64,000 nucleotides of DNA from Nitrospirota bacterium (GCA_963751455.1 CAVVUN010000015.1:448001-512000); one strand, 5' to 3'; positions 2,943 to 12,012 are shown, counted from the first letter of the stretch. Notes: generated by a model not told the origin, from the sequence alone. Translations and numbers: made by a program.

Positions 2943-3377
2943 TTACTTCCTGAACACCTGGTGGCACTGGACGCAGCCGTCCAGGAGCTGCTTCGACAGT
3001 GTCAGCAGCTGCTTCTGATCGTTCAGCTGCCCGGCCTTTGCAAGGGCCTCGAGCTTCCCGTGGAACTGTTTGTCCATCTTTACGAAATCTGCCAACCGCT
3101 GGTTGTTCTTCGGCAGCTTTACCGACCCTGCATGAATGCCTTCGTGCGTCTTTTCCCTGCTGCCGTGCATCGACTCGAGCGCCCTATGAACTTTCGGCCC
3201 GTCTCCCAGCGCTACTGCAGAGACAACTTCCCGGAATGCGCTGTCCAAGGCCGTCATTTCCTCGATCAGCGGATTTGCTTCGCTGCCGTGAACATGGTTT
3301 TCGTGGGCGAGGAGGCTATTTTCCCTTGAAAGCAACAGAATAGCAAAGAACATTGAAACGCGAAGTATATTTTTCAT
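2943..3377 (-). CDS. Periplasmic class II (c'-like) cytochrome c
   Basis: Signal peptide, helical body, single C-terminal CVQCH. Confidence 0.8.
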   Translation of the reverse strand: MKNILRVSMFFAILLLSRENSLLAHENHVHGSEANPLIEEMTALDSAFREVVSAVALGDGPKVHRALESMHGSREKTHEGIHAGSVKLPKNNQRLADFVKMDKQFHGKLEALAKAGQLNDQKQLLTLSKQLLDGCVQCHQVFRK

Positions 3378-3492: not shown

Positions 3493-3602
3493 TGCGAAAG
3501 ACCTGTTCGCAAGGATGGGACGGATAAAAGACTTTTGCAATTTTGACATTATTATATTAATTATAGCGAAGAGGAAGCTGCAAAAAGGGATTCTATAAAA
3601 AG

Positions 3603-3634
3603 AAAAAACCCCGGTGACTTGCATCGCCGGGGCT
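3603..3634 (-). terminator. Intrinsic terminator of the rhodanese gene
   Basis: Minus strand CCCCGGCGAT-GCAA-GTCACCGGGG followed by a U tract. Confidence 0.75.
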
Positions 3635-3651: not shown

Positions 3652-5058
3652 TTACTGCTTCTCGATTTTGTAGTTTCCGTCCTTGTCGATATCGAGCTTG
3701 GCGTTTACAAATTTGACGTTGTAGCCTTTTTCCTTGAGCTTATGGTAGGCCATTTCCGCACGCACCCCGGTTGAGCAATGCGTCACGATCACCTTGTCCT
3801 TCGGCAATTCCGAAGCACGGTCCACTATGTTTTCGTCAGGGATGTTCTTTGCGCCTTTGATCATGCCGGCACCAGCTTCATCCGTGTTCCGGACATCAAC
3901 AATGACTGCCTCGGGCCTGGTTCCTTCGGCAATTTTATTGAATTCCTCGATCGTTATTTCACCCGGCCGCAGCTTCGGCACGTAAACGATGGCCGCAGCA
4001 AGAGTTCCTGTTGCGACAGGATACGAGGCAGTCTGCCATGCGTCCATGCCGCCTGTAAGCAGGCTTACGCCGGTATAACCGGCTGCCAACAGCGACTTTG
4101 CAGCGGTCTTCGCAGAATCACCGCCGTTTTGGTCATAGATGATTATCGGGGGCTTCTTGTCTTTTGGCGGGAACTTAGCGATGTTGGCAGCGACGTCGGC
4201 AGCAGGCATTACTACGGCGCCCTTGATGAAGCCCTTTTGCGCTATTGCCGGCGGCCGCACATCGAGAAGCACAGCAGGAATCTCTTTATCGATAAAAGCT
4301 TCTTTCATTGATTGTACAGACAGTACCGTGTAGTTCTTTTTGGTCCATTCGGGAAGGCCTTCGTGGTACACCTTGACATTTGTATAACCGAGCTTTTCCG
4401 CCCGACCGGCGGAGTTAGGGCTCATTGCTCAGGTCATGCCCGCGCAGTAGTAGACGATGAGAGCGTTCTTGTCTTTGGGGAGTTTATCAACCATCTTTTC
4501 GAAGGCCGGGAACGGAATGTTGATGGCCGTAGGAATGGCGCCTTCCATGAATTTCGGCGCGGGCCGCGCATCGATCAGGAGATATTTGCCCTTCTCGGGA
4601 CCCTTGGCGACAAGCTTCTCTACATCCGCGGTGCCCAGGAGTTTTTCGGGCGCGACTTTGATGGGAGGCTTGGAAACGACGAGCGTTGCGAATTTTTTGC
4701 CGTCCTTCTCAGTGTACTCGACCCTGACCTCTTTCCCTTTCTTTATGGAACGCAGGGGCTCGTCCGGGTTCTCGGCCTGGACATTCCGGACCACGAGGGC
4801 GGCTTTATCGAACTTCAATATTTCGGTTGTTTCGTCGATCTTGATCTGTATCGACTGTGTTTTGTACGCTACGCTGTCGAAATTTCCCCGTAAACTTCCC
4901 GGCTGGGGAGTGTGACAGTTGCCGCAGACCTTGCCGATTATGGGCTTTGCCTGCGCGGCACCAGGTACGTTTTTGTCCTGGGCGCTTGTCTGGCTTATCG
5001 TTAAACTGAATACTAATGCTGCTCCAAATATGGTAATGCTTAAACCTTTTAACGACAT
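3652..5058 (-). CDS. Exported haem-c / triple rhodanese-domain selenoprotein (UGA at 4429-4431 read as Sec)
   Basis: ORFs 4429..5073 and 3652..4425 share a frame across one TGA: YYCAGMT*AMSPNSA; signal peptide, CGNCH, three rhodanese domains; AGGAGG RBS before ATG 5058. Confidence 0.85.
4390..4423 (-). promoter_or_regulatory. Candidate bacterial SECIS hairpin
   Basis: GAGC-CCUAAC-UCCGCC-GGUCG-GGCGGA-AAA-GCUC; apical loop begins 21 nt after the UGA. Confidence 0.7.
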
Positions 5059-5239
5059 CTTTTCCTCCTTCATTATTGTAAAAAAAAAGAAAAAAACTAC
5101 AACATAGGTCTTATTATAACTATAGATTTAGTATTGTCAACCAATATCTAATATCCTTAACAATAAGGGAATCATGTTTTTAAGTATGGAAAAAAGCTGT
5201 CCAATGACGGAGAATATATATTCCAAGGAGAGAAAATCC

Positions 5240-5268: not shown

Positions 5269-5297
5269 CAATATTCTTTTTCGGGGCGGTGTTTTCC

Positions 5298-6642
5298 ATG
5301 TTTGACTCCTTATCCGGCAAATTAGAGGCTGTTTTCAAGAAGCTCCGGGGCAGGGGCGTCCTTAAAGAGGATGATGTCAAAGAGGCCATGCGCGAAGTGC
5401 GCCTGGCGCTCCTCGAAGCCGACGTCAATTTCAAGGTCGTCAAGGACTTCATAGGCCGGGTCCAGGAACGGGCAATCGGCCAGGAGATCCTCAGCAGCCT
5501 TACGCCCGGCCAGCAGGTCATCAAGATCGTGCATGAAGAACTGGTGACCCTGCTCGGAACCACCGCGGCAAAATTGTACCTGTCGCCCAACCCGCCCACT
5601 GTTATTATGATGGTCGGATTGCAGGGCTCGGGCAAAACAACCACGGCCGGCAAACTGGCCAGGAACTTCAAGAAGGACGGCCGCAGGGTCCTCCTTGTTC
5701 CGGCTGACACGCGAAGGCCTGCAGCGGTCCAGCAGCTGGTAACCCTCGCAAAGCAGGTCGGCGTCGACGCGTACTCGTCTTCACAGACAGGACCCTGTAG
5801 TAATCTGCCGGGAGGCGGTGAAACAGGCCGCGTCGTCCTTGTACGAGATCGTCATCCTGGACACGGCCGGCCGGCTCCAGATAGACGAACCGCTGATGGA
5901 AGAACTCCGGCAGATCAAGGCCGGGGTAAAACCTCACGAGGTCCTGCTCGTGGCCGATGCAATGACCGGCCAGGAAGCGGTGAATATCGCCACGAAGTTC
6001 AATGCGGACCTGGGCTTCGACGGTGTGGTCCTTACCAAGCTTGACGGAGACGCCCGCGGCGGCGCAGCGCTGTCGGTCAGGGCCGTTACGGGCAAGCCGC
6101 TCAAGTTCGTGGGTATGGGCGAAAAGCTCGATGCCCTCGAAGCGTTCCATCCGGACCGGATGGCCTCGCGTATTCTCGGCATGGGCGACGTAATGTCGCT
6201 TATCGAAAAGGCGCAGGAGACCGTCGACCACGAAGAAGCGGTCAAGCTTGCAAAGAAGCTCAAGAAGAATTCATTCGACCTGGATGATTTCAGAAACCAG
6301 CTTAAGCAGGTGAAAAAAATGGGCGGTCTCGAATCGCTCATGGGCATGATTCCTGGCATGGGCAAGATGAAGCTGCCGGATGCCGACGTGAACGAGAAGG
6401 AACTGACGAAGGTGGACGCCATCATCAGTTCCATGACGCCGAAAGAGCGGGCGGACTACATGGTTATCAACGGGAGCCGGAGGGCGCGCATCGCAAAAGG
6501 AAGCGGCACCCAGGTCCAGGACGTAAACCGGCTTCTGAAGCAGTTTGCCGAGATGCGCAAGATGATGAAGTCCATGACCAGCGGCAAAATGGGCAAGATG
6601 GGTAAAATGGGCAGGATGTTCGGCGGAAGGATGCCGTTTTAA
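5298..6642 (+). CDS. ffh: Signal recognition particle protein Ffh (apparent frameshift near 5785, likely assembly error)
   Basis: ALLEADV and [10 protein letters not shown] in one frame; [15 protein letters not shown] and the M-domain in another. Confidence 0.93.
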
Positions 6643-10091: not shown

Positions 10092-10177
10092 TAGCAGTGT
10101 CAAAGAAAAAGCACCAAATGTCAAAGATTTTACTCCGACACTCTGATACTTTGATTTCTTGTTCTGAGGGGATTCCC

Positions 10178-10635
10178 ATGATCGACTTGCTAAAAAAGAT
10201 CCATCTGTTCGAAACTCTCACCGGACCCGAGCTGGAGAAGATACTCAAAATCTGCGTGAAGGAGACCTTTCCGAAGGACGCTGTTATCTTCAAGGAAGGC
10301 GAACCGGGGGACCGGTGCTACATCATTACGAGCGGCGCAGTCCGAATCAGCAAGTTCATTCCCAATATCGGGGAGGAAGCGCTGGCCGTTCTCAAAAGTA
10401 TGACTATTTCGGCGAGATGGCGCTGATAGACAATTTTCCGCGCTCGGCGCACGCGATTGTAAACGAAGACGCCGATGTATTCGCGATCAACAAGACCGAC
10501 CTCGACAAGATCCTTATAACCGACCATGAACTCGCGTACAAAATATTCTGGACCTTTACCAAGACGCTGTCGAGACGGCTCAGGGAAACGAATGAGAAAC
10601 TGGCAAGCTTTCTTGCCATGTCCGGCGGCTTTTAG
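10178..10635 (+). CDS. Stand-alone cyclic-nucleotide-binding protein (frameshift in an A-run near 10395)
   Basis: IFKEGEPGDRCYIITSGAVRI, then DYFGEMALIDNFPRSA in the next frame. Confidence 0.85.
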
Positions 10636-10694: not shown

Positions 10695-12012
10695 GTGACA
10701 AAGAAATCATTTAAAATAGGAATGGTAAGCCTGGGTTGTCCCAAAAACCAGGTTGACGCCGAGCAGATGCTCGGTGTGCTCTCAGGCTCGGGCTTCGAAA
10801 TTACTCCGGACCAGGGTGATGCAGATCTGATCGTCGTCAATACATGCGGATTCATCGAGTCCGCCAAGGAAGAATCGATCGAGGCCATCCTCGAAGCGAC
10901 AGGAATGAAAAAGAGCGGCCGCTGCACGAAAGTAGTCATAGCGGGCTGCCTGGCACAGCGCTACAAGGATGAACTTCTGAAAGAGCTGCCCGAGGCCGAC
11001 GCGGTGATCGGCACTGCCGAAATCGGCCGGATCAGTGAGATTTGCGAAGAGGTCCTGGAAGGAAAGAAACCGTTTTTCAGGGTATACATCGCCTGAGATG
11101 GTATATGGACTTCCCCGCCTGAGCACCACGCCTGCCCACTATCGCTATCTCAAGATCGCCGAGGGCTGCAGCAACCGGTGTTCCTACTGCGCGATACCGA
11201 TAATACGCGGAAATTTCAAAAGCAGGCCGTACCTCTCTATCATCGAGGAAGCGCATGCACTGGCCGCCCAGGGAGCGAAAGAACTGGTCCTTTTGGCTCA
11301 GGATTCTACTGCTTACCGGGACGGGGATAAAGATCTTCCGGCATTACTGCAGGACATGACAGCAGTCGCCGAAATCGAGTGGATCCGGCTGATGTATGCG
11401 TATCCCGGCCGGATCAGCGAGAAGCTGGTCAGCGTATTTGCTGAACAAGAGAAGATCTGCAAATATCTGGATGTGCCGATACAGCATGTAGACGATGCAG
11501 TGCTGACCGCCATGAACCGGCGAGGAACGGCAGATGATATAAAAAAGACGATCGAGCTTCTTCGAGCGCGCGTGCCCGGGATCGTTCTTCGCACTTCACT
11601 GATCGTCGGGTTTCCCGGAGAGACGGACGCGGCGTTCAAGCGGCTGCTGGCATTCGTGAAAGAGGCGGAGTTCGAGCATCTCGGAGTTTTTGTCTACTCG
11701 CCTGAAGAAGGAACACCTGCCCGCGATCTCAAACAGGAAGTTCCGCCGGAAGTTGCAAACGACCGGCTCGACCGGATCATGAAAGCCCAGGCCGGGATAT
11801 CGCTCAAGAAGAACCGAGCCTTGATCGGAGCAAGGCGAAGAGTCCTTGTCGACGGGATCGAGGACATGGCGCTTATCGGCAGGCTTTCGACGCAGGCGCC
11901 GGACATCGACGGAGTGGTGTATCTCTCCAAAACCGAAGCAGCGCCGGGCCAGTTCGTGGAAGTCACGATCATGGATGCGACAGAGTATGACCTGGTGGGA
12001 AAGGCACAGTAG
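10695..12012 (+). CDS. rimO: Ribosomal protein S12 methylthiotransferase RimO (frameshift near 11085)
   Basis: SLGCPKNQVD, NTCGFI, KIAEGCSNRCSYC, APDIDG/TRAM domain. Confidence 0.93.

Follow-up and report, generated by a model that had tools for sequence, protein, structure and literature searches.

The window analysed in this study is a stretch of 64,000 nucleotides from a Nitrospirota genome. On its minus strand we found a gene that very likely encodes a selenoprotein. The features identified at this locus, ordered along the gene, are the following, with the type of evidence in brackets:

5113..5140, minus strand: sigma-70-type promoter match TTGACA-16-TATAAT, 12/12 (consensus match alone)
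5064..5070, minus strand: Shine-Dalgarno sequence AAGGAGG, 5 nt 5' of the ATG at 5058 (sequence)
3652..5058, minus strand: gene of 468 codons with one in-frame TGA, very likely a selenoprotein gene (translation and Cys/UGA alignment)
4981..5058, minus strand: predicted Sec-pathway signal peptide, residues about 1-26 (hydropathy; low pLDDT at residues 4-33)
4912..4926, minus strand: CGNCH, probable haem c attachment motif, residues 45-49 (alignment A1; maturation genes)
4672..4896, minus strand: predicted OB-fold beta-barrel, residues about 55-129 (structure model, fold searches)
4336..4638, minus strand: rhodanese domain 1 with catalytic-position C205 (4446-4444) and U210 (Pfam, domain alignment)
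4429..4431, minus strand: TGA codon, almost certainly selenocysteine 210 (aligned codon in 80 loci)
4390..4423, minus strand: bacterial SECIS element with lower stem, 6-bp upper helix 4413-4397 and loop GGUCG 4407-4403 (folding, conservation)
4021..4326, minus strand: rhodanese domain 2, inactive type, Asp309 at the catalytic position (D in 112/120 rows of A1)
3694..3966, minus strand: rhodanese domain 3 with catalytic-position C428 in CSTGVR (C428 in 120/120 rows of A1)
3596..3634, minus strand: terminator-like hairpin with U-run between the selenoprotein gene and a cytochrome c' gene (z -3.6, 0/200 shuffles)

The frame runs from the ATG at 5058 to the TAA at 3652. Gene calling with table 11 breaks it into ORFs at 4429-5073 and 3652-4425, and the 257-aa C-terminal piece is present as a separate entry (P0027) in a public protein set. 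Translation with TGA as U gives 468 aa with U210 as the single recoded codon, which confirms that the two called ORFs are one frame, as the first-pass annotation had proposed. All of the motifs it had listed were recovered, namely CGNCH at residues 45-49, YYCAGMT-U-AMSPNSA, EKLGYTNVKVYHEGLPEW, YDQNGG and HCSTGVR. The closest named relatives of the gene belong to Nitrospirota. Its description as a hidden selenoprotein holds for the gene calls, which split the frame, but not for the class, which is already catalogued (PMC13188914). We therefore regard the protein as very likely a mis-annotated variant of this catalogued selenoprotein class, and the surprise is limited to that extent.

Across 80 related loci the codon aligned with U210 is TGA in 18 cases and TGC or TGT in 60, with 2 loci unaligned. 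A non-Cys residue in homologues had been named as an outcome that would speak against selenocysteine; among the aligned loci of the 80 examined we found only Cys or UGA at this position. A copy with one TGA is present in every one of the 23 of 53 family genomes that have a close match. A tree of 60 rows requires at least three changes between Sec and Cys, and Sec is placed in deep branches under midpoint rooting only. The genome contains matches over cut-off for selA, selB and selD together with two tRNA-Sec calls, so that the other objection foreseen, a lack of the Sec machinery, does not apply.

According to the legend of Fig 2 in PMC13188914, bacterial SECIS elements have a loop of 3-9 nt with a G in the first two loop positions, an upper stem of 4-16 bp, a distance of 16-37 nt from the UGA and a folding energy of at most -7.5 kcal/mol. 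The element found here falls within these ranges, with the 5-nt loop GGUCG, an upper stem of 6 bp, a distance of 21 nt and -12 kcal/mol. The stem-loop at 4423-4390 had thus been located correctly, but the 21 nt given for it is the distance from the UGA to the apical loop, whereas the stem begins 5 nt past the UGA. Compared with shuffled sequences its stability is not significant (z -0.85 to -1.3 in three shorter windows, +0.09 in the longest), and a simplified SECIS rule is satisfied by 100 of the 2289 long TGA-ended frames in the genome. Conservation is what raises the hairpin above chance, not stability alone. With the helix defined on the window's own sequence, all six upper-helix pairs are intact in 23/23 distinct UGA sequences, most of them kin, vs 0/87 Cys sequences, the latter picked by one loop pattern. 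Helix 2 is 100% paired in 22 of these UGA rows, with C-G, U-G and U-A exchanging at one pair, which is altered on both sides in 3 of the 22.

Together, the Cys/UGA interchange, the SECIS element and the Sec machinery back the read-through proposed earlier, and on this sequence evidence UGA 210 is almost certainly read as selenocysteine. As a rival possibility, the TGA could be a genuine stop or stem from an assembly error, in which case the locus would hold two genes or a pseudogene. The assembly does have apparent frameshifts elsewhere, in ffh, rimO and a cNMP-binding gene (window 5289-6642, 10695-12012 and 10097-10635) as well as in selD and dsrA (G000:C2:129959-130880 and G000:C2:327037-328180), and the split in selD would, if real, impair Sec synthesis; all of these frameshifts look like assembly indel errors. 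We consider a stop or error at this codon scarcely credible, as the TGA occupies the identical position in 18 named loci and 23 family genomes, always stands opposite Cys elsewhere and comes with a UGA-specific helix, and as a stop would sever the rhodanese domain within its active loop.

Further selenium-related genes were noted in the genome. On the small contig G000:C13 (9355 bp), the second tRNA-Sec call, which is divergent, is accompanied by YedF, a rhodanese with two domains, a double-cubane reductase and a selenium-metabolism LysR regulator; the contig may represent a selenium island or, with genome contamination at 5.4%, come from a contaminant. Two additional rhodanese genes contain a TGA and a SECIS-like hairpin (G000:C15:1669016-1669450 and G000:C2:598669-599500); one is exported and single-domain with a C-x4-U-x-x-S loop, the other is of U-x-x-G type and fused to a C-terminal part that looks ferritin-like.

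Conservation along the protein was assessed in alignment A1, which comprises 120 rows (the window and 119 of 120 listed matches, the window's own fragment being excluded) and was made with no selection for CxxCH. C45 is present in 119/120 rows, and C48 and H49 in 120/120. A homologue with a CX4CH variant (L158) retains the C...CH arrangement, and cytochrome c maturation is present in the genome (PF01578, four matches over cut-off). Because His49 is invariant, the CX4CH variant exists and the maturation genes are present, we consider it quite likely, from these sequence features, that CGNCH carries a covalent haem c. Inspection by eye of the distant CxxCH homologues revealed no candidate for a sixth haem ligand conserved in all of them. 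Distant paralogues are lipoproteins that have the C-x4-U loop and no CxxCH.

The domain that follows the motif is modelled with a pLDDT of about 96 (96.3) as an OB-fold barrel. Its best Foldseek match is CusF (E 8.7e-4), and many OB folds were matched at Z 6-7.3, none at 8. No cytochrome fold occurs among the listed matches of this N-terminal model, which is free of haem, and an unlisted family may exist. The haem motif would therefore sit on a short tail preceding the barrel, outside a recognised cytochrome domain. For the whole protein the model has a pLDDT of 88.7 and a pTM of 0.80; searches of solved structures and fold searches with the whole model returned generic rhodaneses only, and a protein atlas queried with residues 38-135 gave a top score of 0.77 and rhodanese clusters only. 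A hydropathy scan of the 468-aa protein showed no membrane segment beyond the signal. Of the earlier description as an exported haem-c protein, export is thus in line with the predicted signal, while haem attachment is only likely, and the domain behind the motif models as an OB fold.

Pfam detects three rhodanese stretches (PF00581), and together with the domain alignment they reproduce the triple layout read in the first pass, with C-x4-U, Asp and Cys loops. In A1 a C or U at position 210 and S213 are found in 120/120 rows and C205 in 119/120. C205, D309 and C428 share the catalytic position, so that the Sec is a second chalcogen five residues past the catalytic Cys. In one distant homologue with CxxCH (L159), neither the second residue of the loop nor the Cys of the third domain is present.

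In 15 Nitrospirota loci, that of the window among them, the gene is arranged back-to-back with the housekeeping genes ffh and rpsP-rimM-trmD-rplS, and neither a sulfur gene nor MccSep is found beside it, so that it stands alone. A co-oriented cytochrome c' gene at 2943-3377 had been suggested as the electron-transfer partner of a sulfur transferase. It lies on the same strand, 275 bp downstream, shows a weak Cytochrom_C_2 match (E 5e-5, under cut-off), and homologues adjoin the gene in four loci (L016, L023, L033, L115). We nevertheless rejected this partner, because the terminator-like hairpin, which an earlier terminator scan with a loop limit of 8 had missed, separates the two genes, and because, among the 17 TGA loci whose downstream sequence reaches 800 bp or more, only 2 have a homologue of it as neighbour. 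A transferase wired to this cytochrome is accordingly very unlikely.

Genomic context is richer around the Cys-type orthologues. Among 60 betaproteobacterial loci (L034-L093), 43 have a gene for the large subunit of a Psr/Phs-like molybdoenzyme, and genes for Fe-S and NrfD subunits are present in 35 loci each among L032-L093. A cluster of neighbouring genes with a YeeE-type representative occurs in 16 betaproteobacterial loci, and about 10 loci adjoin an isc/hsc cluster, without Psr. In the Geobacteraceae-like family 49 of 81 genomes have a match, and the best 30 loci (L117-L146) are all Cys-type. A reductase-type gene lies within 1.5 kb in 27 of these 30; PsrA-like genes occur in 14 loci, octahaem tetrathionate-reductase-like genes in 13 (L118 has both) and an ExtN gene in 1. 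The Psr-like proteins score 499 and 505 vs the PhsA cut-off of 694, so that their substrate is not fixed. In L177 the orthologue heads an extN/O/P-type operon.

DUF3373 and a small Cys-tailed protein accompany the gene in 26 of the same 30 loci, the small protein being encoded between DUF3373 and the Cys-type rhodanese. It is an exported protein of about 107 aa ending in an invariant K-K-x-A-G-C, observed in L117-L146, L032 and L040 (e.g. L173:9985-10305, minus strand). It has no NCBIfam match at 1e-10 and none in Pfam over cut-off, and is a candidate for a SoxY-like swinging-arm sulfur carrier. A profile of seven sequences did not find it in the present genome, and homology between it and the OB barrel (23% probability over 21-22 columns) is not established. 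TGA-bearing paralogues that are lipoproteins without CxxCH were observed in L149-L152, L155 and L156, and those of L149-L152 and L156 are flanked by a NiFe uptake hydrogenase operon on one side and the gene for a nine-haem cytochrome on the other.

A close PsrA is absent from the present genome, where the best match has 28% identity, and in the relatives sample two of the 61 genomes have a PsrA-like protein. Instead, the genome has three Sec-type MccSep/ExtKL genes over cut-off (G000:C15:1355435-1356709, G000:C7:6495-7718 and G000:C1:52374-53594); each was seen to have an in-frame TGA and a downstream hairpin. MccSep is a selenium-dependent periplasmic polysulfide reductase with Sec beside a Cys-ligated haem, which also reduces selenite, and its sulfur-delivery route is described as unsettled, with further sulfur-transfer components allowed (PMC13510729, 2026). 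In the family sample of 53 genomes at least 85% complete, 39 of which have MccSep, it is present in 22 of 23 genomes with the gene vs 17 of 30 without (Fisher p 0.0015, overstated since kin genomes are not independent). In an overlapping sample of selA-positive genomes only, the counts are 17/17 and 6/14, and among five genomes of genus g11 the sole carrier of the gene is the sole carrier of MccSep. One genome (G149, 88% complete) is an exception, with the gene and without MccSep. As MccSep is common and 17 genomes have it without the gene, the carrier is not required for MccSep, and in none of the annotated loci is the gene adjacent to MccSep. A dsrA gene is present in 50 of the 53 genomes, which marks the family as sulfur-cycling anaerobes but makes dsrA uninformative as a control.

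In five of the 53 family genomes the coordinates place DUF3373 (PF11853) immediately upstream of MccSep, and three of these were read in sequence; the pairs are G021:C3:247196-249864, G156:C38:158208-160927, G161:C11:14026-16512, G151:C102:4529-7235 and G155:C254:5-2679. DUF3373 also leads the rhodanese operon in Geobacteraceae-like genomes, where Psr-like operons too begin with it, and so links the rhodanese and MccSep as an operon partner common to both. Its weak match to outer-membrane barrels makes it a candidate for a polysulfide channel. Its co-occurrence with the gene is weak (15/23 vs 12/30 in the 53 family genomes; p 0.10, likewise overstated). The DUF3373 gene of the present genome (G000:C12:112772-114785) stands alone behind an ArsR-like regulator, which, as a guess from the sequence, may possibly sense persulfide.

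Five forms of rhodanese selenoproteins are catalogued (PMC13188914; also PMC9312934, PMC1976440 and PMC5029168), of which form 1 is defined by PF00581 and UxxS, with WP_010941598.1 as representative (PMC13188914). Our protein resembles form 1 in PF00581 and in U-x-x-S, here U210-A-M-S213, the representative being compared by description only. The protein also has CxxCH, an OB barrel and a triple layout, none of which is named, nor any function, in the catalogue entry as far as it was available. WP_010941598.1 is presumably Geobacter GSU0930. The GSU0930 locus holds a 525-nt partial gene within a transcript with room for about 418 codons (supplement of PMC6148476), a size that fits related multi-rhodanese proteins. 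GSU0930 is not mentioned in the main texts of the literature searched, and the supplements of PMC1794560 gave no match for rhodanese. In the Geobacteraceae-like family the closest orthologues of our protein are the 30/30 Cys-type loci described above, and the TGA-bearing paralogues are the lipoproteins without CxxCH.

Two further selenoprotein models were compared. Residues 139-249 match TsoB (NF045694, a rhodanese/DsbD fusion-like protein with UxxxxU), which shares the five-residue chalcogen spacing in the loop, but the score is 73.9 vs a cut-off of 805, our protein has one Sec (CxxxxU), and a DsbD-like membrane part is absent. The rhodanese_LYCAU form 3 (NF041203) was rejected, with a score of 85.4 vs a cut-off of 115 and CxU there vs C-x4-U here. 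YnjE and EanB also have three rhodanese domains and appear in sequence and fold searches, but the identity is about 17% and the query TM about 0.2, which indicates a different domain packing; YnjE and EanB act in cofactor or ergothioneine synthesis.

The nearest functional model is Sud of Wolinella succinogenes, a periplasmic rhodanese whose bound polysulfide is presented to PsrABC (PMC2628731). Our protein is likewise a predicted exported rhodanese with catalytic Cys residues (C205, C428), its Cys orthologues adjoin Psr-like genes, and a profile search weakly matched domain 3 to Sud (chain 1qxn, E 3.7e-4). It differs from single-domain Sud (137 residues in 1qxn) in having three domains and an OB barrel in 468 aa, and the PsrABC partner, present in Cys-type relatives, has no close match in this genome. 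Sud itself has one Cys and is not known to carry haem or Sec. A second comparison is offered by the Geobacter extHIJKL cluster, which encodes ExtH, an exported lipoprotein rhodanese of multi-domain size, with a porin, a small periplasmic protein and a MccSep reductase (PMC5877670, PMC6148476). Its layout matches that of the Cys-orthologue operons, with DUF3373, small protein, rhodanese and reductase. Unlike our protein, ExtH is a lipoprotein for which the available description, our only basis of comparison, notes no haem or Sec, and Ext-named models gave no match to the 468-aa protein at E 0.01. PMC13047784, PMC12545173, PMC13490349, PMC5317093 and PMC1914089 mention periplasmic rhodaneses, DUF3373 or MccSep, and in the portions available not the CxxCH/OB/triple-rhodanese layout. 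A protein of this layout is not described in the literature searched, where subscription papers or supplements (PMC13188914) may contain one; nor did this literature yield a link between the rhodanese selenoprotein family and MccSep, or expression, activity or structure for the family.

Taken with the frame, motifs, context and co-occurrence described above, we infer the following chemical steps and partner for a Sud-like carrier. Polysulfide would enter through an outer-membrane protein of the DUF3373 type and be bound at C205 and/or C428 in the form of a persulfide chain. In the lengthened loop, the selenolate of U210 lies five positions past C205 and may speed S-S exchange or release via a selenenylsulfide. 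The loaded carrier would then hand its sulfur to a terminal reductase, as Sud does to Psr, and the haem could re-reduce the C205/U210 pair or relay electrons between partners. In Cys lineages the receiver would be a Psr-like or octahaem reductase; in this genome it would probably be MccSep. We judge it likely that the protein is a sulfane-sulfur carrier tied to S-S respiration, whereas MccSep as the receiving enzyme in this genome is possible, at somewhat less than even odds. The explanation as a whole, a Sud-like exported periplasmic polysulfide (sulfane sulfur) carrier serving a sulfur-respiring reductase, here probably MccSep, has in our view an even chance of being right. A periplasmic sulfur/selenium transferase wired to electron transfer, as first proposed, thereby gains indirect support from the Cys-orthologue operons, without the link to the cytochrome at 2943-3377.

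Three other roles were weighed against the Sud-like carrier. The protein could itself be a small oxidoreductase in which haem c works against the C205/U210 loop to reduce or form S-S bonds, in the manner of MccSep, TsdA or SoxA on a rhodanese scaffold. CxxCH, C205, C/U210 and C428 are nearly invariant together, the gene stands alone here with its own promoter and terminator, and MccSep pairs Sec with a Cys-ligated haem, all of which would suit such an enzyme; yet a dedicated reductase usually adjoins the Cys orthologues, which fits a carrier better, and L159 has CxxCH but neither the second residue in the loop nor the Cys in domain 3. We hold this role to be unlikely, and find equally improbable a general sulfurtransferase of the periplasm that has no fixed respiratory partner and serves to buffer or detoxify sulfane sulfur, with CxxCH perhaps acting as a structural disulfide or metal site. 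The housekeeping surroundings of the gene in Nitrospirota, the metal chaperone CusF as the barrel's top Foldseek match and the paralogues that keep the loop without CxxCH point in this direction, but a plain disulfide would need neither the invariant His49 nor the CX4CH arrangement of L158, and the operons link the gene to S-S reductases in each of two distant groups.

That the protein handles selenium or tellurium in place of sulfur, for instance in selenite reduction or the trapping or delivery of selenide, similar to what has been suggested for the Geobacter ext genes, seems to us more doubtful still. The ext cluster contains a rhodanese and affects selenite reduction (PMC5877670), selenite is also a substrate of MccSep (PMC13510729), and the orthologue in L177 heads its ext-type operon. 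However, ext genes accompany only 1 of the 30 Geobacteraceae-like loci, most of the others having Psr-like or tetrathionate-reductase-like genes, and the gene in the present genome is distant from the sel genes.

The family is widespread: with an E-value limit of 0.001, at least 1209 proteins in the databases match, many of them at the domain level only. Cutting of Sec-type copies at the active loop is a systematic annotation error, and copies split in this way are consequently absent from sulfur-cycle inventories of subsurface Nitrospirota. The family provides a concrete candidate for polysulfide delivery to a periplasmic reductase, a gap left by the account of MccSep available to us (PMC13510729), and cultured or Cys-type relatives would be easier to express. 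If the haem is real, an OB barrel bearing CxxCH next to a C-x4-U loop would constitute a redox arrangement not described so far. More tentatively, and on balance improbably, the family may supply the periplasmic sulfur-delivery step still missing from selenium-dependent sulfur respiration, in the form of a C-x4-Sec triple rhodanese with haem c on an OB barrel that would be loaded through DUF3373, redox-primed by its own haem, and would feed MccSep in Nitrospirota or Psr-like and octahaem reductases in the Cys lineages. If true, this would add a monohaem scaffold of a new kind and give three unrelated S-S reductases a modular front end in common.
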